This document shows positions 7,267 to 16,062 of a stretch of 16,062 nt of DNA, piece after piece. Origin of the DNA: a virus (Duplodnaviria > Heunggongvirae > Uroviricota > Caudoviricetes). The position numbers and the translations under genes were made by a program. Position 1 is the first letter of the stretch. Every line of letters begins with the position of its first letter. The stretch is taken from positions 1-16,062 of the IMG/VR virus record IMGVR_UViG_2698536355_000012; one strand, given 5' to 3'. The notes under the pieces are model-generated. The model was given only the letters and a program-made list of their open reading frames with translations. It did no database searches and was not told the DNA's origin.

Positions 7267-7296
7267 CAAAAAAATAGCCAAAGGTAACTTTGGCTA
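7267..7296 (-). terminator. Rho-independent terminator downstream of the repressor gene
   Basis: On the minus strand a 9 bp stem (7275-7283 pairs with 7288-7296, loop GTAA) is followed by a run of seven T (plus A7 at 7268-7274), 15 nt after the cI stop codon. Confidence 0.7.
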
Positions 7297-7310
7297 CATA
7301 TCTGGGGGGG

Positions 7311-7970
7311 TTAAATGTTCTGGGTTATTTGGACGACTTTGCCGACAATTCGGCAGTTTCCGTCAATTTGGATAGGCTTGAAAGCTGGGTTAAGTGGCAT
7401 GAGATAGGCGAATGGGCTATCCCACACTAATTTTTTTACAGTCGCTTCGGTAGAGCCTTCCAGTGTGGCAACGACTATTTTCCCGTAAAGATCATCAATT
7501 TGCCCGAAATGTGGTTCAACGATAACAATGGAACCTTCTGGAATTGATGGCAATCCATGAGGGTTAGTCATTGACTCTCCGCGGACCACTAACCCGAAAA
7601 CCTCTTCAGATACATTAGCTGTAGTTTGTGTCCATGCAATCACGTCTGTAAGCCTTGAACTGGCGTAGGTTTCTGTCCATAGACCAGCCTGAACGGCTGA
7701 TATAATAGGCACTGCTGTTGGCGGCTTAAGGAAGGGGACTAATTTGATATCATCAACGTCAGCATCTCCTTTGCCATAGAGAATCCATTCCGGGGTTACC
7801 TGAAGTACACCAGCAAGTTGGTGTAAATTCTCACCATCCGGCTTCGTTGTTCCATTCTCCCATTTCGTTACAGACACGCGACTGACCCCAAGCTTTTTGG
7901 CAAGGGTAAGCTGAGTCATATCGAGCTGGACTCGACGCGAACGAATACGGTCTTTCATCTCTGTTTTCAT
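7311..7970 (-). CDS. cI: CI-type repressor (P22 C2-like; HTH plus S24 LexA-like autopeptidase domain)
   Basis: 219 aa. N-terminal HTH (QLTLAKKLGVSRVSVTKWENG), C-terminal GESM (Ser) and VKKL (Lys) in S24 peptidase positions. Overall pattern closely parallels recalled P22 C2 (PIIS.V.AG.W, GDSM, PEG, ATVKKLV, NGNC.I.G.VV). Confidence 0.9.
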   Translation of the reverse strand: MKTEMKDRIRSRRVQLDMTQLTLAKKLGVSRVSVTKWENGTTKPDGENLHQLAGVLQVTPEWILYGKGDADVDDIKLVPFLKPPTAVPIISAVQAGLWTETYASSRLTDVIAWTQTTANVSEEVFGLVVRGESMTNPHGLPSIPEGSIVIVEPHFGQIDDLYGKIVVATLEGSTEATVKKLVWDSPFAYLMPLNPAFKPIQIDGNCRIVGKVVQITQNI

Positions 7971-8063
7971 GTAACCAATGTTACCTCTTTTGATGGTAAC
8001 TGTTGTTTGCTATTTAATGTACCTTTTGTTACCTTGTGGTGCGTAAGGTAACTAGGAGGAATC
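7971..8063. promoter_or_regulatory. Divergent immunity control region (OR with PR/PRM)
   Basis: 93 bp AT-rich intergenic between divergent cI and cro. Contains palindromic half-sites GTTACC (7980-7985) and GGTAAC (7995-8000), a third 18 bp operator repeat at 8018-8035, GGTAAC at 8047-8052, and the cro RBS AGGAGG at 8054-8059. Exact -10/-35 assignments not resolved. Confidence 0.6.
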
Positions 8064-8261
8064 ATGCGCAAATCTGAAGTCATAGAGCACTTCGGCGGAG
8101 TAGCCAAAACTGCTAATGCATTAGGTATTTCCCATCCAGCAGTTTGTCGATGGGGGGAGATCATCCCCGAGAAGCAAGCTTTTGTGATTGAGCGGATCAC
8201 GAAAGGAAAGCTCAAGTACAGCTCCGTTCTTTATCAAAAGTCTAATCAGACAGTCGCGTAA
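8064..8261 (+). CDS. cro: Cro-like repressor (P22 Cro family)
   Basis: 65 aa; VIEHFGG...ALGIS..AV..W.EIIPEK....I...T.G.LKY mirrors recalled P22 Cro (VIDHFGT...ALGISDAAVSQWKEVIPEKDAYRLEIVTAGALKY). Strong RBS AGGAGG upstream of ATG 8064. Confidence 0.85.
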   Translation: MRKSEVIEHFGGVAKTANALGISHPAVCRWGEIIPEKQAFVIERITKGKLKYSSVLYQKSNQTVA

Positions 8262-8289
8262 CGAATACCACAGAAACAAGGGGACAACC

Positions 8290-8856
8290 GTGGATAAACA
8301 ACACTGGAAAGTCGAACGACAGCCCGCCTGGCTGGTGGCTGCCATTAAACGGACTATCGCCGAAATGCCTGGTGGATATGCCGAAGCTGCTGAATGGCTT
8401 GGCCTGTATCGCGCCGGAAAAGTGTCAACCGATGCGCTCTATAACCGGCTGCGCAGCGAAGGCGATCAGATTTTCCCGCTTGAGTGGGCGATGGTGCTCC
8501 AGGATGCCAGCGGCACTAAGTACGTCACCGATGCGATAGCCCGCCGTAGCGGTGGTGTGTTTGTGCCGCTGGTGGACATTGATGACGTCGATAACGGTGA
8601 CATCAACCAGCGCCTGATGGAGTCAATCGAATGGATCGGCAGACACTCACAGTACCTGCGCAAAGCGACCGCTGACGGCGTTATTGACCCGGCAGAACGT
8701 GAGCAAATCGAAGAGAACAGTTACCAGGTGATGGCGAAGTGGCAGGAGCATCTGACGCTGCTGTTTCGTGTGTTTTGTGCGCCGGAAAAAAGTGACGCCC
8801 GCGAGTGTGCAGCTCCGGGCGCCTTGGCGAACAACTCTTCGTGTATGGAGAAATAA
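8290..8856 (+). CDS. CII/YdaT-like early regulatory protein (family assignment tentative)
   Basis: 188 aa from GTG 8290, with AAGGGG 6 nt upstream; the listed ORF start 8188 overlaps cro and is treated as an extension. Position immediately after cro is the cII position; sequence recalled as resembling CP76/YdaT-type proteins but not verified. Confidence 0.45.
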   Translation: MDKQHWKVERQPAWLVAAIKRTIAEMPGGYAEAAEWLGLYRAGKVSTDALYNRLRSEGDQIFPLEWAMVLQDASGTKYVTDAIARRSGGVFVPLVDIDDVDNGDINQRLMESIEWIGRHSQYLRKATADGVIDPAEREQIEENSYQVMAKWQEHLTLLFRVFCAPEKSDARECAAPGALANNSSCMEK

Positions 8857-9028
8857 TCCGCATGACCAGTTTAACGGCTTTTAACCGTTTACCGCAACTG
8901 AGGATGATCCCGGTGCAGGGAACTCCGCTGTTTCGGTATGAACGCAGAATATCAAACCGCTGGGTGCCATGTAACCACAGTCGGGCGGCCGCAATTGTGG
9001 GTGTTTACTACAGGAAGGCGAAACGCTT

Positions 9029-9214
9029 ATGCGCGAAGTTAACCGAAGGTTCAAAGACCACTACGGCGTGCCCGTCCGTGTTATCCGCTGGGAGCCAGAA
9101 ACGCGCCGCGTTATCTACCTGCGGGAAGGGTATCCGCATGAATGCTTCAGCCCGCTTGAGCAGTTTCAGCGCAAGTTCAGGGAGATAAAGAACGACCATG
9201 AGCCAGATATTTGA
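9029..9214 (+). CDS. Hypothetical small basic protein
   Basis: 61 aa ORF with AGGAAGG about 10 nt upstream of ATG 9029; balanced, charged composition. Overlaps the replication gene start by 17 nt. The alternative ORF 8805/8862..9188 in another frame looks less protein-like. Confidence 0.35.
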   Translation: MREVNRRFKDHYGVPVRVIRWEPETRRVIYLREGYPHECFSPLEQFQRKFREIKNDHEPDI

Positions 9215-10133
9215 AATCGTTCAATCACTGTCGGGGCAAAGGAACTGCATCACTATTCCGGTTCCGTACCTTGATTTTTTCTCGGGTGACCAACAGGCGC
9301 ATGCTTTGGGCGCAGTCCTAAACCAGCTTGTGTTCTGGTCTGGAAAATCAGACCTGAATGATGGTTGGTTTTACAAAGAGCACAGCGAGCTGGCGGAGGA
9401 GATTCACGGTGTAAGCGAAGACCAGGTACAGCGCCTGGTAAACAAGATTTGTACCCGCTGGCTACCTGATGTAGTTCAGAAAACACAGCGGCAGGTTAAC
9501 GGCACTAAAAAGACGCATTACCGTATCGATGGTGAAGCGCTAATCAACGTTTTATTCCCGCCAACACTGGTTCCCGCAGAATCGCGGAATGGGAAACGCG
9601 AAGTCGCGGAACATGTTCCGCAGAATCACGGAACAGAAAACGCAGACCCGCGGAACCCTAACCGTGAAGTCGCGGAACCTATTCTTTATACAGATCATTA
9701 CTCAGATCACCACAAACAGATCAGTAAACCTTCTTGTCCGGTTGCTGCGCAACCCGACCCGGAAGTGGTGATTACTGACCATGCGATTGAAGTTTTGCTC
9801 CATCTGAACCAGGTCAGCGGATCGCGCTACCAGAAATCAAGGACCTCGCTGGAAAACATCCGCGCCCGTCTGCGGGAAGGTTACAGCGTCAATGACCTGA
9901 AGCTGGTTATTGACCTGAAGCACGAGCACTGGAACGGCAACGATGAGCAGTACCAGTACATGCGTCCTGAAACCCTGTTTGGGCCGAAAAAGTTCGAAGG
10001 GTACCTGTCCAGCGCTACCCGCTGGGATAGCAAAGGCCGCCCGGAGCGCCAGTACTGGGATGCAGCTCGTAAGCATGATCCTGTGAAGTTCGGGCCAGTT
10101 GATACCAAGATTCCTGAGGGGTTCAGGGGATGA
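9198..10133 (+). CDS. Phage replication initiator (O-like replisome organiser with conserved phage C-terminal domain)
   Basis: 311 aa. The C-terminal YMRPETLFGPKKFEGY segment matches a recalled conserved phage replication-protein C-terminus. An iteron array lies inside the coding sequence, as with lambda O. Length and position are consistent with the intact form of KplE1 yfdO. Confidence 0.7.
   Translation: MSQIFEIVQSLSGQRNCITIPVPYLDFFSGDQQAHALGAVLNQLVFWSGKSDLNDGWFYKEHSELAEEIHGVSEDQVQRLVNKICTRWLPDVVQKTQRQVNGTKKTHYRIDGEALINVLFPPTLVPAESRNGKREVAEHVPQNHGTENADPRNPNREVAEPILYTDHYSDHHKQISKPSCPVAAQPDPEVVITDHAIEVLLHLNQVSGSRYQKSRTSLENIRARLREGYSVNDLKLVIDLKHEHWNGNDEQYQYMRPETLFGPKKFEGYLSSATRWDSKGRPERQYWDAARKHDPVKFGPVDTKIPEGFRG
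9562..9734. repeat. Candidate replication origin: iteron array with 22 bp periodicity, a 16 bp palindrome and a GATC cluster
   Basis: Five units beginning (G/A)CGGAA(C/T) at 9584, 9606, 9628, 9650 and 9672, exactly 22 bp apart, with a partial unit at 9562-9583. Perfect palindrome GCGGAACATGTTCCGC at 9606-9621. Three CAGATCA repeats at 9691-9697, 9703-9709 and 9717-9723 in a more AT-rich stretch. Confidence 0.65.
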
Positions 10134-11029
10134 ATGAAAATAAATACTGCCAGGCGCTGGCGGAAATGCGCAGCAGGAACGCGCACAAGCTGAAAGAAGT
10201 TGGCGATCAGTGGCGCACGCCGGAGCTGCTGTTCTGGGGGATTAATGCGATGTTTGGCCCGCTGGTGCTGGACCTCTTTGCCGACGACAGCAACGCTAAA
10301 TGCCCTGCCTGGTATACCGCAGAAGACAACGCGCTGACGCAGGACTGGTCTGAGCGCCTGGCGGAACTCGGCGGCGCCGCGTTTGCTAACCCGCCATACA
10401 GCCGATCGCAGTACCACGAAAAGCAGGCAATCACCGGGATGACCCACATCATTAACCACACGATGGCCATGCGAGAGAAGGGCGGTCGCTATGTGTTTCT
10501 GGTCAAAGCCGCACCAAGCGAAACATGGTGGCCGGAAGATGCAGACCACATTGTTTTCATCCGCGGTCGCATCGGTTTTGACCTTCCGGAATGGTTTGTA
10601 CCGACAGACGACAAGCAGCAGCCCACCAGCGCATTTTTTGCGGGCGCCATCGCGGTGTTTGACAAGACCTGGCGCGGCGAGCGCTTCAGCTATATCCACC
10701 GCACAGAGCTGGAGGCTAAGGGGCGGGCTTTCATGGTGCTGGCCGAATTTGCCGCGGGCAAGGTTCAGCCACCAGCAACACCGGCGCCAGCGCAGGTTGA
10801 CCCGGTTGTAGCGCCAGCAGCATTACCTGATGTTGATTCGCGCATCTGGCCGCTTGAGGTTGGGCTGGTGTTCAACCAGGTTGAGGGCGCGGATTCTCTG
10901 GATGCATCGCAGCAGAACAAGCTGAAAGCGAACATTAACCAGCTGTGGCTTGAGCGTATGCCAACCAGCGAAATCATAACGGTTGCTGGTGGACTGGTCA
11001 GCAGCATGCAGGGGGTGACCAGTGCGTGA
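10130..11029 (+). CDS. Phage Dam-type N6-adenine DNA methyltransferase with C-terminal extension
   Basis: 299 aa. N-terminal DQWRTPELLF and the catalytic-type NPPY motif (FANPPYSRS) are characteristic of phage Dam-family MTases. ATG 10130 overlaps the replication gene stop (ATGA). About 110 C-terminal residues (Pro/Ala-rich linker plus extra segment) exceed the usual family length. Confidence 0.8.
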   Translation: MNENKYCQALAEMRSRNAHKLKEVGDQWRTPELLFWGINAMFGPLVLDLFADDSNAKCPAWYTAEDNALTQDWSERLAELGGAAFANPPYSRSQYHEKQAITGMTHIINHTMAMREKGGRYVFLVKAAPSETWWPEDADHIVFIRGRIGFDLPEWFVPTDDKQQPTSAFFAGAIAVFDKTWRGERFSYIHRTELEAKGRAFMVLAEFAAGKVQPPATPAPAQVDPVVAPAALPDVDSRIWPLEVGLVFNQVEGADSLDASQQNKLKANINQLWLERMPTSEIITVAGGLVSSMQGVTSA

Positions 11030-13019
11030 AATTATCGTTGATAACTTCGCCGGCGGCGGCGGTGCGTCTACCGGGATCGAACTCGCTATAGGGCGCAGCG
11101 TGGATATTGCCATCAACCACGATGAAAACGCCATCGCCATGCACAAGACCAACCACCCCGACACGCTGCATTACTGCGAATCGGTGTTTGATGTGGATCC
11201 GGTTGCCGCCACTGGCGCGCATCCTGTTGGCCTGGCATGGTTCAGCCCCGACTGCCGCCATTTTTCAAAGGCGAAAGGCGCGAAGCCGGTGAAGAAGGAA
11301 ATCCGCGGGCTCGCGTGGGTAGTTATCCGCTGGGCGCTGGAGAAGCGACCGCGCGTGATGATGCTGGAGAACGTCGAAGAGTTTAAAACGTGGGGACCGT
11401 TGCTACGTGAAATGCCGTTCATTAGCCATGCGGAGCGTCACCTTAGCGACTTCATCGGGCCACCAGTACCAGTTGAACAGAACCCGGATCGTGCACGAGC
11501 TGGCGAGACGTTTGCAGCGTTTGTCGGCATGCTGTCGACGGGGATCCAGGCTGATCATCCGGCGCTGGCCGAGGTCTGCGAATTCCTCTCTATTGAACCT
11601 GGTAGCGGGCAGGCGCAACAGCTGGTTGCCGGGCTCGGCTATGACGTCGATTATCGCGAGCTGCGCGCGTGCGACTATGGCGCGCCGACAATCCGTCGCC
11701 GTTTCTTTATGGTCATGCGCTGCGATGGTAAAGCCATTCACTGGCCTGAACCGACCCACGGGGATCCGAAATCACTGGAGGTGCAGAGCGGCAGGCTGGC
11801 GCCGTGGCGCACCGCGGCGGAGTGTATCGACTGGAATATCCCGGCGCTGTCTATCTTCGATCGCAAAAAGCCCCTGGCAGAAAATACCCTGAAGCGTATT
11901 GCGCGCGGTATCCAGCGGTTTGTCATCGAGAGCGCCTCGCCGTTCATCGTGAAATGTAACCACACCACGACGAAAGGTAGCTATGACTGTTTTCGTGGTC
12001 AGGAGCTGGGCGCACCGCTGCAGACCATCACCAAAACCCACGGCTACGCGATAGCGGTACCGCACCTGACTAAATTCCGCACCGGCGCAACCGGGCAGCC
12101 CGTTACCGAACCGGTTCCTACGGTGACCGCCGGCACATCGGCGCGCCCGGGCGGAAATGGTCATGCCCTCGGTGTTGTTGAGGCGGAGCTGACACCATTC
12201 CTGGCTGGCAACGGCGGCAGCGAATACCAGGCGAAGCCGCGCGCGCTGAATAAGCCTGCCCACACTATCCTGAAGCAATCCCGCGCCTGCCTGGTTACGC
12301 CAGTGATTGCCCGCCAGTTCGGCGCCAGTATCGGCCACCGGGCAGACGAACCTAGCGCAACGATTACTGCGGGCGGTGGCGGTAAATCGCAGCTGGTGAC
12401 ACCGACGCTGATCCAGATGGGCTACGGTGAGCGTCCGGGGCAGGAGCCGCGCGTCCTGCAACTTAATAACCCGCTGGGAACCGTTACCGCTGGTGGCAAT
12501 AAGTTTGCAACGGTGAGCGCATTCCTGGCGAAGCACTACGGCGGGAATTATACGGGCCCGGGCGTGGGTCTGGATGAGCCAGCCCACTCCGTGACGACGG
12601 TCGATCACCATGCTGTTGTTGCCTCTCATCTGGTCAAGCTGCGCGGAACATGCCGCGACGGGCAGCGCCTGGACGAACCTATGCCAACCATCACTGCCGG
12701 CGGCCAGCACGTAGGGGAGGTTCGGACATTCCTTGAAACCTACTGCGGGGAAAGCGAAGACGAATGGCTGGTGACGATCGAGGGTGTTAAGTACCAGATT
12801 GTTGATATCGGCATGCGTATGTTGCAGCCCCATGAGTTGTATAAGGCCCAGGGTTTCCCGGATGGCTACGTTATCGATCAGGACTACCGGGGCAACCGCT
12901 ACGCGAAGGATAAGCAGGTCGCGCGCTGCGGCAACGCCGTCCCGCCACCATTCGCCCGCGCGCTGGTGGAGGCAAACTTACCTGAGATGTGCGCGGATCC
13001 GCAACGGGAGGTGGCATGA
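11022..13019 (+). CDS. DNA cytosine-5 methyltransferase, unusually large with repeat-containing variable region
   Basis: 665 aa. Motif I FAGGGGASTG, motif IV PDCRHFSKAKG (catalytic Cys), motif VI ENVEEF, motif VIII-like PTIRRRFFMV, motif IX-like LQPHELYKAQGFPDGY, motif X CGNAVPPP. GTG 11022 overlaps the Dam stop. About 370 aa lie between motifs VIII and IX, with recurring P-x-T-[IV]-T-A-G-G units. Confidence 0.85.
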   Translation: MREIIVDNFAGGGGASTGIELAIGRSVDIAINHDENAIAMHKTNHPDTLHYCESVFDVDPVAATGAHPVGLAWFSPDCRHFSKAKGAKPVKKEIRGLAWVVIRWALEKRPRVMMLENVEEFKTWGPLLREMPFISHAERHLSDFIGPPVPVEQNPDRARAGETFAAFVGMLSTGIQADHPALAEVCEFLSIEPGSGQAQQLVAGLGYDVDYRELRACDYGAPTIRRRFFMVMRCDGKAIHWPEPTHGDPKSLEVQSGRLAPWRTAAECIDWNIPALSIFDRKKPLAENTLKRIARGIQRFVIESASPFIVKCNHTTTKGSYDCFRGQELGAPLQTITKTHGYAIAVPHLTKFRTGATGQPVTEPVPTVTAGTSARPGGNGHALGVVEAELTPFLAGNGGSEYQAKPRALNKPAHTILKQSRACLVTPVIARQFGASIGHRADEPSATITAGGGGKSQLVTPTLIQMGYGERPGQEPRVLQLNNPLGTVTAGGNKFATVSAFLAKHYGGNYTGPGVGLDEPAHSVTTVDHHAVVASHLVKLRGTCRDGQRLDEPMPTITAGGQHVGEVRTFLETYCGESEDEWLVTIEGVKYQIVDIGMRMLQPHELYKAQGFPDGYVIDQDYRGNRYAKDKQVARCGNAVPPPFARALVEANLPEMCADPQREVA

Positions 13020-13402
13020 AGCTGGTGCTGCCGTTTCCCCCGAGCGTTAACACATACTGGCGCGCCCCTAACAAGGGGCCGCTGGCTGGGCGCCATCTTA
13101 TCAGTGCCGACGGCCGCAAATACCAGAGCGCGGCCTGCGCGGCGATCATTGAGCAGTTGCGCAGGCTGCCGAAGCCATCAACAGCGCCTGCTGCAGTCGA
13201 AATCACCCTGTATCCGCCGGACGCGCGCCGCCGGGATCTGGACAACTACAACAAAGCGCTGTTTGACGCGCTGACGCATGCTGGCGTGTGGGAGGACGAC
13301 AGCCAGGTAAAACGCATGCTGGTGGAGTGGGGGCCAGTGGTGCCGAAAGGCAGGGTTGAGATAACGATCAGCCAATACGAACCGGCGGGTGCAGCCGCCT
13401 GA
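13016..13402 (+). CDS. rusA: RusA Holliday junction resolvase
   Basis: Start placed at ATG 13016, overlapping the C5-MTase stop (ATGA). LPFPPSVNTYWR ... RRRDLDNYNKALFDALTHAGVWEDDSQV ... GRVEITI closely parallels recalled E. coli RusA (LPWPPSNNRYYR ... [28 protein letters not shown] ... GRLELTI). Confidence 0.9.
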   Translation: MKLVLPFPPSVNTYWRAPNKGPLAGRHLISADGRKYQSAACAAIIEQLRRLPKPSTAPAAVEITLYPPDARRRDLDNYNKALFDALTHAGVWEDDSQVKRMLVEWGPVVPKGRVEITISQYEPAGAAA

Positions 13403-13416
13403 TATGGAGAAATAGC

Positions 13417-13713
13417 ATGAGCAAACTTAGAGGATTGGTGTGTAGGCCTGATTTTTTGACTATTAGCAGTAATGAGATTGCCAAGGAATTTGGTAAACGA
13501 CATGACAATGTACTTCAGGATATCAGAAGAATTCTTCGCTCCCTGAATCTTCCAGAGGACCACCTTGCAGGGGAATACGCGGATGAAAGAGGAAGGCTCT
13601 ACCCATGTTTCAGGCTTGATAAGAGACTTGCATTGGTGTTGCTTACCTCGTACGACAACGTCTCACGTCTTAAGGTAATTGAATATTTTATTGAAAACGG
13701 AGGGCGCCTGTGA
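13417..13713 (+). CDS. Rha-family N-terminal domain protein (short paralog)
   Basis: 98 aa, GGAGA 6 nt upstream of ATG 13417. Clearly paralogous to the N-terminal ~90 aa of the next gene (EIA...KRHD.V..DIR..L..LN....F.G.Y.D.RGR.YP...L.K.L.L.L...Y...). Visibly more AT-rich than neighbouring genes. Confidence 0.7.
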   Translation: MSKLRGLVCRPDFLTISSNEIAKEFGKRHDNVLQDIRRILRSLNLPEDHLAGEYADERGRLYPCFRLDKRLALVLLTSYDNVSRLKVIEYFIENGGRL

Positions 13714-14411
13714 AAAGTCTAGTGAATGTTAAGAGTGATCCCGGCTTCCCTGCAATGTCCAGCCTGGAGATCGCCGGGTTGTGTGATAAGCGACACGACC
13801 ATGTAATGGCTGATATTCGCAATATGCTCGAACAGCTCAATATTCAATCTCCCGAGTTTTCGGGAGATTACCGGGACGACCGCGGGCGCTGTTATCCGCT
13901 TTACCACCTGCCAAAAGACTTATGCCTTACGCTGGTCTCCGGGTACAACGTGGTGCTGCGTAAACGCATTATCGATCGCTGGCTTGAGCTGGAGAACGGT
14001 CAGCAGGTCAGTGTGCCGCAGTCACTCCCGGAAGCGCTTCGCCTGGCGGCAGACCTCGCTGAGCAGAAAGAGCAACTGACCCAGCAGCTGGCCGCCGCGG
14101 CGCCAAAGGTCGAGTTTGTCGATCGCTACTGTACCGCGAAAGGGTCAATGTCGTTTCGCCAGGTGGCAAAGCTCCTGAACGCCAAAGAGACCGACTTCCG
14201 TCTGTTCCTCATCGACAGCGACATCATGTACCGCCTCGGGGGCGTACTGACCCCGCGGCACCAGCACATTAACGCCGGGCGGTTTGAGGTAAAAACCGGG
14301 ACCACCAGTGAATCGAACTATGCATTCAGCCAGGCGCGCTTTACCGCAAAAGGCGTTGAGTGGATCGGTGGCCTGTGGACGGCGCATATCGCTAAGGGGC
14401 ATGCCGCGTGA
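13710..14411 (+). CDS. Rha-family phage regulatory protein / antirepressor with C-terminal KilAC-like domain
   Basis: 233 aa; GTG 13710 overlaps the upstream stop, GGAGG 6 nt upstream. N-terminal Rha-like domain plus a C-terminal region typical of antirepressor (AntA/AntB, KilAC) proteins; domain names from recall. Confidence 0.7.
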   Translation: MKSLVNVKSDPGFPAMSSLEIAGLCDKRHDHVMADIRNMLEQLNIQSPEFSGDYRDDRGRCYPLYHLPKDLCLTLVSGYNVVLRKRIIDRWLELENGQQVSVPQSLPEALRLAADLAEQKEQLTQQLAAAAPKVEFVDRYCTAKGSMSFRQVAKLLNAKETDFRLFLIDSDIMYRLGGVLTPRHQHINAGRFEVKTGTTSESNYAFSQARFTAKGVEWIGGLWTAHIAKGHAA

Positions 14412-15469
14412 GAGCACTGCTGACAGCCGAAACGGTACCGCGCCTCGGCCTGGTGCTGCTGAAGCCGGGTAAAGACCTGATGCGCCTGTTCAGTGGCGGC
14501 CGTGTGCTGGTGGAGTCCGAGCCCAGGAGTATGGCCGCGCTTCCGTCAGGCCGTGTTCCCGATGCCCGGCAGCCGCTGGCTGATGATCCGCTTCTTATTT
14601 CCTTCTTCACCGACGAGCGGGTCATACGCGCCGCCGGCGGATTGCCCGGGCTCGAGTCCTGGCTGCTGCACCGTGTGCGTCAGTGCCAGTATCAGCACTC
14701 CGGCTACCACCATAAGGAGCTGGTCACAATGCGCCACCCGCCCGGGGCGATGGTGCTGTGCTGGCATTGCGATAACGAGCTACGCCAGCAAACGACAGAG
14801 CAGCTGGCGGAGCTGGCGCGCCGTAACGTTGTCGCCTGGGTGATCGATACCGTTCTGGCAGCGCTGGGTTTCAATAATGAGCGGGAATTGTCGCTGGGTG
14901 AGCTGTGCTGGTGGGCGGTCTGTGCAGGTATCGCCGGTGCAATCCCTGAAACGATGGCCCGCCGCGCGCTGCAGATGCCTGATGAGCCGTTTCTGCCGTT
15001 TTACCGGGAAAGCGATATTGTGCCAATGCCGCCGGCCACCAGCATCCTGCAGGAGAAGGCTGCAACCGCAGGAGCAGTAAAACAGCGCAGGAGCAGCACA
15101 AACCCGCAGGAGGTGCAGAAGCAGCCCGCAGTGCTGGCGCTGAGGATCGATCCGGAATCGCCGGAATCATTCATGCTGCGACCGAAGCGCCGCCGCTGGG
15201 TAAACGAGAAATACACCCGCTGGGTAAAGGTTCAGCCCTGTGAAGGTTGCCGCCGTCCGGCAGACGACCCGCACCATATCATCGGGCATGGTATGGGCGG
15301 TACAGCCACAAAAGCCCACGACCTCTTCGTGATCCCTCTGTGCAGAGAGTGCCACGACGAGTTGCACGCCGATGTAGCGGCATTCGAGAAGAAGCACGGC
15401 ACGCAGCTGGAGCTGCTGTTTCGTGTTCTGGATCGGGCGCTGGCGATCGGCGTAATTGTAAAAGCTTAA
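14408..15469 (+). CDS. NinG/DUF968-like protein with C-terminal HNH-like Cys/His motif
   Basis: 353 aa; GTG 14408 overlaps the upstream stop. C-terminus CEGCRRPADDPHHIIGHGMGG...CRECHDELH resembles the zinc/HNH-like motif of DUF968-type phage proteins usually found between rusA/nin genes and Q. Confidence 0.55.
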   Translation: MRALLTAETVPRLGLVLLKPGKDLMRLFSGGRVLVESEPRSMAALPSGRVPDARQPLADDPLLISFFTDERVIRAAGGLPGLESWLLHRVRQCQYQHSGYHHKELVTMRHPPGAMVLCWHCDNELRQQTTEQLAELARRNVVAWVIDTVLAALGFNNERELSLGELCWWAVCAGIAGAIPETMARRALQMPDEPFLPFYRESDIVPMPPATSILQEKAATAGAVKQRRSSTNPQEVQKQPAVLALRIDPESPESFMLRPKRRRWVNEKYTRWVKVQPCEGCRRPADDPHHIIGHGMGGTATKAHDLFVIPLCRECHDELHADVAAFEKKHGTQLELLFRVLDRALAIGVIVKA

Positions 15470-15483
15470 GTATGGAGAGCAGA

Positions 15484-16062
15484 ATGATCAATCCTTCAGT
15501 AGTTGGTAAAAGCGATGAAATGGTGCGCTTACGTACACTTGAGAGCGTCTGGATTCAAGGGAAATTGAGAATGTGGGGATGCTGGTCCTGCATTGGTAGC
15601 GGTTCTGGAGGCAACATGTTTAACCAGTTGTTGGCATCAGGAAAAGTTACCAAAACAGCTATTAACGATGCTATTCGCCGTATGAAAAAATCTGGTATTA
15701 CCAAACCTGAGTTGGAAGCGTTTTTCCTCGAAATTCTCAGGGGAAAGAAAAAAAGCAATCTTGCGTTCTGCACGGATGAGGAAGGACTGGCGACTGACGC
15801 CGTCCTCAGTGAAGTGCTGGTGCGTCCTGGGCACAAGCGTTTGTACCATGTAATTAGTGATCGCTATCGTTATCGAATGAGTAAGAAGGAAATGGCTCGA
15901 CAATTAAACGAGCGACATCCTGAATGGTGCTTGCGAACATGTGAAAGCAGAATTGATGTCTGGTTAAATATGGCGGAATCGATGCTATATCAACCAATGT
16001 GTGATGCTTTCGACACAAATGGCGACAGATTTTCATTGACGGATTGCGCAGAAACTGCTTAA
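15484..16062 (+). CDS. Putative late-gene antiterminator Q-like protein
   Basis: 192 aa from ATG 15484 (GGAGAG upstream); the listed ORF start 15247 overlaps the previous gene and is treated as an extension. Last gene of the early-right operon, basic with a Cys cluster (WGCWSC). Assignment is by position and general character, not verified similarity. Confidence 0.45.
   Translation: MINPSVVGKSDEMVRLRTLESVWIQGKLRMWGCWSCIGSGSGGNMFNQLLASGKVTKTAINDAIRRMKKSGITKPELEAFFLEILRGKKKSNLAFCTDEEGLATDAVLSEVLVRPGHKRLYHVISDRYRYRMSKKEMARQLNERHPEWCLRTCESRIDVWLNMAESMLYQPMCDAFDTNGDRFSLTDCAETA

Follow-up and report, generated by a model that had tools for sequence, protein, structure and literature searches.

A stand-alone Rha-domain gene upstream of a Roi/Ant-like gene in a lambdoid prophage: a one-gene mosaic module that may tune its neighbour

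Introduction

Why would a temperate phage carry, immediately upstream of a full-length regulatory gene, a second gene that encodes the N-terminal domain of such a regulator and nothing more? The question is raised by 16,062 nucleotides (nt) of viral DNA (IMG/VR record IMGVR_UViG_2698536355_000012, positions 1 to 16,062; ‘the window’ hereafter, meaning the whole stretch that was analysed), which represent the early region of a lambdoid Escherichia coli prophage and of which at least 3 kb are identical to contigs from three E. coli assemblies. One strain that carries this prophage is the source of GCA_012614485.1. Here a 98-amino-acid (aa) open reading frame (ORF) with an ATG start, which we call S (13417..13713, + strand), is followed by a 233-aa ORF with a GTG start, which we call B (13710..14411, + strand). 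An initial annotation made from the letters alone had noticed this pair, and both ORFs are indeed present with these positions and lengths.

Where temperate-phage genes are labelled ‘regulator’ or ‘antirepressor’, Rha, Roi and KilAC proteins are some of those most often meant, though their mechanisms are poorly understood. We argue below that S is a genuine gene, carried on a one-gene mosaic module and with a history separate from that of B, and we suggest, tentatively and at somewhat less than an even chance, that it is a KilAC-less Rha DNA-binding paralogue that tunes B.

Results

A stand-alone Rha-domain gene under purifying selection

S matches the Pfam model Phage_pRha (PF09669) at 48.2 bits against a gathering cut-off of 29.9, and the corresponding domain of B (aa 16-96, approximately 13755-13997, + strand) matches it at 55.4 bits. 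Against the NCBIfam subfamily TIGR02681 both proteins score below the cut-off of 45.95 (S 39.1 bits, B 24.0 bits); by these scores they are members of the wider Rha domain family that stand outside this narrower subfamily. The two share 41% identity over residues 1-93 of each (BLASTP, E = 2e-22), S lacks any KilAC match, and its end coincides with the end of the Rha domain. In an AlphaFold model of S (predicted local distance difference test, pLDDT, 75; predicted template modelling score, pTM, 0.60) the elements run strand-helix-helix-beta-hairpin-helix-helix, an order repeated in the N-terminal domain of the B model, where it is followed by a long helix (aa 106-130); the KilAC part of the B model is poor (pLDDT below 50), and this model is read only for the N-terminal domain and the long helix. 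The description of S as a stand-alone equivalent of the N-terminal Rha domain of B, given in the initial annotation, is thus borne out by identity, by domain match, by predicted element order and by the point at which S ends.

The Rha domain of S is a predicted DNA-binding domain with a weak winged-helix resemblance; no solved structure related by sequence was found. That Rha, Bro-N and AntA/B are DNA-binding modules is a long-standing prediction, as cited in PMC9043618, and the models of S and B fit this prediction as models can, short of proof. At the level of residues, S keeps the family-wide motif SSxE[IV]A...GKRHDxV..DIR...G.Y.D..GR.YPC, with the usual C-terminal ‘IDRWxELE’ helix replaced by ‘VIE[HY]FIxxGG’, the Gly-Gly codons of which also encode the Shine-Dalgarno sequence of B.

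Close relatives of S are few and uniform. A protein identical to S is already present at NCBI as ‘Rha family transcriptional regulator [Escherichia coli]’; the only other 90%-identity clusters close to it number three, at 74-78% identity and all of 98 aa, and in a HMMER search of 1.84 billion representatives the whole S family forms a single 50%-identity cluster, beyond which the next matches are generic Rha domains at 36-49% identity. A metagenome scan for further relatives yielded distant generic Rha domains only, at 37-62% identity over parts of the query. Most of the short ‘stand-alone’ Rha matches from the representative library have the appearance of metagenomic fragments, cut short or frameshifted, and we do not use them as evidence that lone Rha domains are common.

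Five independent S-B pairs could be compared: that of the window, L004 (with L004-L010 being one sequence type from sequencing-run assemblies), and L041, L056 (with L057) and L075 from IMG/VR contigs. S is 98 aa long in all five, down to 59% identity in L075. Among the window, L004 and L041, synonymous divergence in S is saturated (pS 0.81-0.88) and nonsynonymous divergence low (pN 0.07-0.155; pN/pS 0.09-0.19), while the two other frames of the same sequence give pN/pS of 1.1-8 and contain 4-14 stops. S is a genuine gene under strong purifying selection.

This bears directly on the least favourable explanation, that S is a non-functional remnant, either a truncated or frameshifted piece of an antirepressor gene or an ORF that is never translated. 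S is short, odd in composition and missing from most relatives, as such a remnant might be, and one gene caller starts B at Met16, giving a 218-aa product and no overlap with S. Yet not only the length of S but also its start, its stop and its overlap with B are invariant across the five lineages, its closest relatives share that length, a good Shine-Dalgarno sequence (GGAG, 13406-13409) lies 7 nt 5′ of the ATG at 13417, and codons 1-15 of B are themselves conserved, which supports the upstream, overlapping GTG. Given the constant 98 aa and the purifying selection we reject both the untranslated-ORF and the frameshifted-fragment versions, both having been named in the initial annotation as outcomes that would overturn its proposal, and regard a remnant as extremely improbable.

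In a further IMG/VR contig (3300011527_000007; locus L135, 2794-3327) an intact S, identical to that of L056, is followed by a gene that consists of 35 residues of B and then tape-measure-like sequence; this locus is either a chimeric assembly or a large rearrangement.

A one-gene module at a conserved junction

The sequence that leads into S (13384..13420, + strand) is a conserved mosaic junction, comprising a GC hairpin, GGCGGGTGCAGCCGCC (13384-13399), at the 3′ end of rusA, the rusA stop TGA (13400-13402), the GGAG described above and the ATG of S. All 37 bp are 100% identical in the unrelated E. coli phages LLS, Eeyore and Flotzy and in E. coli prophages. In those records the gene before the junction is either rusA or a methyltransferase gene, and three different types of Ant N-terminal domain come after it, those in phage LLS and the Nissle 1917 prophage being unrelated; where a phage lacks S, the same junction stands directly before B. 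It has the look of a conserved linker at which modules are exchanged by recombination.

The boundaries of the module that carries S are given by a near-isogenic E. coli prophage without S (L045, of the type in GCA_047874185.1), in which the order is Dam-Dcm-RusA-B-DUF968-Q. By blastn, L045 1708-2504 corresponds to window 12624-13420 at 97.0% identity, and L045 2516-4275 to window 13725-15484 at 95.2%. What differs is a segment of 304 nt (13421..13724, + strand), holding the body of S and the first five codons of B, in place of 11 nt in L045. The break in base composition coincides with these homology breakpoints, and in the alignment the ribosome-binding site that L045 uses for B is used by S.

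Repeats around S and B that might serve as operators were limited to two-copy matches of 10-22 nt, at chance level. The consensus WATCAANNNNTTR for integration host factor (IHF) has no match in 13000-14500 and a single one in the window, at 9542, and at least one match also occurs in 77 of 200 shuffled sequences; the lack of a site near the genes is weak negative evidence only.

Separate acquisition rather than duplication

An adjacent gene with the same domain might be expected to have arisen by duplication, and if the 5′ part of B had long ago been duplicated locally in tandem, with fast divergence and loss in most lineages afterwards, S and B would be left as they are now: next to each other, in the same orientation, with a shared domain and the same predicted secondary structure. 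When 164 Rha domains are compared by neighbour joining, all 200 bootstraps recover S as monophyletic and 196 do so for B, and none (0/200) unites S with B in a clade. S sits on a long branch, with a mean distance of 1.27 to other Rha domains as compared with 0.77 for B, and long-branch effects could mask a sister relationship of the two. Against duplication, S shows 44-48% identity to many unrelated Rha domains (48% being the highest to any Rha domain outside the S family), equal to or above its 41-44% to B, and the starts of S and B are 293 nt apart and out of frame. The N-terminal domains of B do not separate by the presence of S, those from phages that have it and those from phages that lack it being interleaved at 91-97% identity, and the compositional break falls on the homology breakpoints. 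We therefore consider an old duplication very unlikely.

The histories of S and B are, moreover, independent of each other: between L041 and L056, S is 96% identical at the nucleotide level, whereas the N-terminal domains of B are 78% and its C-terminal domains 69% identical. Taken with the absence of the module from L045 and with the tree, these separate histories lead to the conclusion that S was acquired separately, by recombination at conserved junctions. This conclusion is well supported and a recent local duplication is not; the preference for acquisition in the initial annotation thereby stands.

Base composition and codon usage

That preference had been drawn from base composition, S appearing more AT-rich than its neighbours, and the observation is easily confirmed. 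The GC content and the GC content of third codon positions (GC3) are 0.434 and 0.424 in S, compared with 0.571 and 0.679 in B, 0.635 and 0.725 in RusA and 0.619 and 0.709 in the DUF968 gene; of the arginine codons, AGA or AGG make up 8 of 12 in S and 0 of 16 in B. Yet the low GC of S persists: GC3 is 0.40-0.475 in all five lineages, despite saturated synonymous sites, while B in the same lineages has a GC3 of 0.48-0.68 and the 300-400 nt flanks a GC of 0.55-0.65. Because it has been kept in every S lineage through saturated synonymous divergence, the AT-richness is not merely a scar of recent transfer. Recent foreign origin alone does not explain it, and so of the earlier argument the acquisition holds and the scar as its sole sign does not.

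The downstream gene and its link to S

B combines its Rha domain and long helix with an ANT/KilAC domain (PF03374; aa 125-223, approximately 14082-14378, + strand; 82.4 bits, cut-off 25.3) and matches PHROG 63, ‘anti-repressor Ant’, at 1.6e-62. It is 32.6% identical to Roi of H-19B over residues 16-219 (E = 1e-20), and its KilAC part is 38.6% identical to P1 Ant1. There are 3,841 homologues, from E. coli, Enterobacter, Kluyvera, Atlantibacter, Citrobacter and other hosts, and of the best 120 almost all are likewise 233 aa long. Both S and B belong to the early rightward operon; they fall after the replication genes and before Q, in the interval whose early genes are known as the nin region. 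By position and homology B is a Roi-like nin-region gene, and the name ‘antirepressor’, which the initial annotation had applied to it, comes from homology to the KilAC domain alone. In the functional sense, exemplified by P22 Ant, P1 Ant and the Gifsy antirepressors, such a protein binds a phage repressor and inactivates it, and is made under inducing conditions. We are cautious about that name because B belongs to the early rightward operon, has no + strand promoter nearby and shares its prophage with a repressor that carries Peptidase_S24. Repressors with Peptidase_S24 are, in the established examples, of the self-cleaving type.

S and B overlap by 4 nt (GTGA), the GTG of B occupying 13710-13712 and the TGA of S 13711-13713. 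Together with a GGAGG (13699-13703), which lies 6 nt 5′ of the GTG and is encoded in the Gly-Gly codons that end S, these form a putative reinitiation site for B (13699..13713, + strand). All five independent pairs have a 4-nt GTGA or ATGA overlap with a 233-aa B gene, accompanied by a GGAGG, GGGAGGG or GGTGG motif. The initial annotation had called the two genes translationally coupled: as anatomy this is a fact in every pair, and as a mechanism it is what such an arrangement would suggest. No + strand promoter or terminator was found between S and B, nor one belonging to S itself, and a single transcript is therefore expected, on which the strong initiation site is that of S.

A programmed frameshift that would fuse S to B was considered and rejected; it would need a -1 shift, and sequence inspection found no slippery heptamer within 13690-13713 and none conserved in L004, L041 and L075. 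On the minus strand, a sigma-70-like site (13714-13685; TTCACA, 18 nt, TAAAAT; matching at 10 of 12 positions) is directed antisense into the 3′ end of S, and its -10 element, which reads ATTTTA on the + strand, recurs in the sequences upstream in L004 and L041; such a site could give rise to an antisense transcript over S.

Distribution of S

S is rare. It is found in none of 5,426 complete E. coli genomes, and it is missing from all four species-representative genomes with a B-type gene and from L045-L050. The 80 best IMG/VR matches comprise 31 loci with a B-type gene and 49 with other types of Ant N-terminal domain; S occurs in three of the former (~10%), 28 being without it, and in none of the latter. 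Wherever an independent pair was recovered (5/5), S stands directly upstream of a B-type gene, even though the same junction also fronts other types of Ant N-terminal domain. Since most B-type loci do without S, S is dispensable for the function of B.

Discussion

Possible function of S

How, then, might such a gene act? The explanation we tentatively put first is that the S module entered by recombination, its borders being the junction that ends rusA and a point a few codons into B, and that S now occupies the ribosome-binding site from which B is driven where S is lacking, with B now presumably started from the GGAGG in the end of S and the GTG that overlaps the S stop. S and B would then be made from one mRNA in linked amounts, and the translation of B would be tied to that of S. 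Keeping the Rha core motif and lacking the long helix and the KilAC domain, S would most likely occupy the same class of DNA sites as the N-terminal domain of B, or bind the same partner, and in this way tune, and probably dampen, a Roi-like regulator during lytic development. The dominant-negative or decoy role proposed in the initial annotation may be correct, as one of several readings that the data allow.

Several observations weigh against this explanation. S is only distantly similar to the N-terminal domain of B and sits on a long branch, and its specificity for DNA or for a partner may accordingly differ; alleles of S swap freely with respect to alleles of B, which speaks against a tightly co-evolved interface between the two proteins; most B-type loci lack S; and the low GC3 of S in every lineage is left unexplained by the model. 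The proposal is also built from sequences and structural models.

The serious rival is that S and B are two halves of one regulator with two Rha domains, acting as a heteromer or on adjacent half-sites, in which S would be no antagonist but a required partner that extends DNA recognition. Approximately 18 of the best 150 Rha relatives carry two or three Rha domains in one chain, and single Rha-Rha-KilAC chains of 341 aa (P0127), 327 aa (P0130) and 324 aa (P0144) are of a size with S and B together (98 + 233 = 331 aa); the conserved stop/start overlap would, in addition, supply the two proteins in linked amounts. Set against this, S is kin to neither fused domain in particular, its best-matching stretch being the first domain in P0125 and the second in P0126, P0127 and P0130, and none of the Rha domains outside its own family exceeds the 48% identity noted above. 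Within the S family (four clusters, all of 98 aa) the fused form is absent, S and B recombine independently, and ~90% of B-type loci work without S. We regard a split regulator as possible but rather unlikely. It is also conceivable that S has no tie to B whatsoever, and is instead a small self-contained regulator with a target in the host or in another phage, for which the rusA-ant junction is a mere landing site. The clean single-gene module with its sharp breakpoints, the rarity and dispensability of S, its lastingly foreign codon usage and the exchange of its alleles independently of B would all suit such an accessory gene. But an unattached gene would not be expected to precede a B-type gene in every independent pair, to favour B-type loci in IMG/VR (3/31 versus 0/49 for the other types), to be joined to B each time by a 4-nt overlap, or to be without a + strand promoter and terminator of its own; nor does S match known defence families, the PADLOC defence-system models giving no match for S, B or the DUF968 protein at E ≤ 0.01. 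An independent accessory role is therefore, in our view, unlikely.

Returning to S as a paralogue that tunes B, a bolder version of the proposal would see S as a portable domain-only switch, a kind of phage microprotein that, once inserted upstream of Roi/Ant-type genes, resets how they are translated, by capture of the ribosome-binding site, and how active they are, through a shared Rha domain that competes or partners. In this version the AT-rich, AGA/AGG-rich coding sequence would itself be selected, for example for throttling the downstream gene. We offer this as a speculation that is more probably wrong than right by a good measure. If true, it would be a defined and transferable way in which lytic-growth regulators of the Rha/Roi class are tuned.

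A natural domain-only S alongside a near-isogenic prophage without it offers a genetic handle on what the Rha domain does and on whether forms reduced to the N-terminal domain antagonize or assist the full-length protein, as engineered fragments of AriS suggest. The locus also shows cleanly how one gene is exchanged as a mosaic unit at a conserved junction and how the translation of the gene after it is rewired.

Prophage setting

The leftward genes of the window include an integrase (1-1176, minus strand), a repressor with a helix-turn-helix and Peptidase_S24 (7311-7970, minus strand), a LexA_DNA_bind protein, an exonuclease and others. Rightward, the order is Cro, a CII-like gene, a replication gene, Dam, a 665-aa Dcm-type methylase, RusA, S, B, a DUF968/HNH-like gene and the start of Q; the arrangement RusA-(S)-B-DUF968-Q is syntenic in every related locus. 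The DUF968/HNH-like gene (14408..15469, + strand, from the ORF list; Pfam DUF968 246.6 bits) has its GTG start in a 4-nt overlap with the stop of B (GTGA, 14408-14411). Consecutive GTGA overlaps at 13710-13713 and 14408-14411 link S to B and B to the DUF968 gene and suggest a series of nin-region genes that are joined in translation. At the start of Q (DUF1133/antitermQ; window ~15470-16062) GC drops again, from ~0.62 to 0.44-0.49, and marks a second abrupt border between modules of different composition within this operon.

Other genes of the window show features of their own. The Dcm-type cytosine methylase (11022-13019) is unusually long at 665 aa, and its Pfam match comes in three pieces, implying large insertions; the L045 version has 679 aa, with a similarity gap at window positions ~11405-11482 and 12620-12623. 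Near the integrase, a 135-aa protein (1340-1744, minus strand) consists of a LexA DNA-binding domain only, and in related prophages LexA_DNA_bind-only ORFs of 106-108 aa lie directly upstream of rusA (L046 1775-2101; L048 1782-2102). Such proteins may be SOS-box decoys or regulators.

Comparison with known systems

Rha domains, KilAC proteins, their shuffling and the mosaicism of the nin region are all already known, S itself is already annotated as a Rha family regulator, and the S-B locus is a modest variation on the shuffling of phage regulators rather than a new kind of system; it will not surprise the specialist. Our search of the literature for tandem Rha genes or for the mechanism of the Rha domain returned nothing specific beyond the AriS paper discussed below and a restatement of the phi80/P22 Rha phenotype. 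Within the literature searched, a conserved, translationally linked domain-only paralogue that forms a portable module upstream of a Roi/Ant-type gene seems to be undescribed.

Rha of phi80 and ORF201 of P22 are the founding members of the Phage_pRha family (PF09669/TIGR02681), and S and the N-terminus of B match its Pfam domain model; all of them are products of temperate-phage genes outside the immunity region. The phi80 and P22 proteins are ~200 aa long, with sequence beyond the domain, whereas S is the domain alone. As a functional class, Rha genes are also marked by expression under the control of IHF. In PMC4936722, the Rha phenotype of phi80/P22 is given as a block to phage growth in IHF-deficient hosts. 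Our likening of S and B to these proteins is by domain only, S and B being known here as sequences.

Roi of HK022, H-19B and 933W is a nin-region DNA-binding protein; B is homologous to the H-19B protein and lies in the same place, between nin-type genes and Q. Clerget and Boccard reportedly found (J Bacteriol, 1996) that Roi binds a site inside its own gene beside an IHF site. Roi is described as a single gene, however, and no domain-only paralogue is annotated upstream of it among the Roi-bearing records listed.

The Rha-Rha-KilAC chains from metagenomes (P0127, P0130 and P0144) hold the domains of S and B in the same order and at similar total length, but in a single polypeptide, and the two Rha domains of a chain, both of the common type, often nearly repeat one another; S, by contrast, belongs to a divergent, long-branch family. 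P1 Ant1/Ant2 resembles S-B in having a long and a short related protein at one locus, and Ant1 is the protein with which the KilAC part of B was compared above. Ant1 and Ant2 are products of one gene, Ant2 starting in frame beyond the N-terminus of Ant1 and retaining its C-terminus, whereas S is a separate gene and a paralogue of the N-terminal domain only. In the unrelated Pseudomonas phage PS-1 (L042 1024-2675) we observe another adjacent pair with shuffled domains: a gene for a 326-aa ‘antirepressor’, a 4-nt overlap, then one for a 224-aa ‘phage regulatory protein Rha’.

The nearest experimental parallel to the proposal that S tunes B is, by analogy, AriS of Listeria phage phi10403S (AntA/B + ANT/KilAC), whose layout of a variable N-terminal domain and a conserved KilAC domain is like that of B; in AriS homologues the N-terminal domain may be AntA/B, Bro-N or pRha (PMC9043618). 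The two activities of AriS are separable, the N-terminal domain acting on the phage's own genes and the KilAC domain on the SOS response, and the N-terminal domain alone lowers phage transcription by ~50% and virion yield by ~10-fold (PMC9043618). The parallel has its differences: AriS's own N-terminal domain is AntA/B rather than Rha, the hosts are Firmicutes, and SOS inhibition by KilAC is known for AriS whereas B is linked to it by homology only. Finally, the domain-only form of AriS is an engineered construct, whereas S is a natural and conserved gene.

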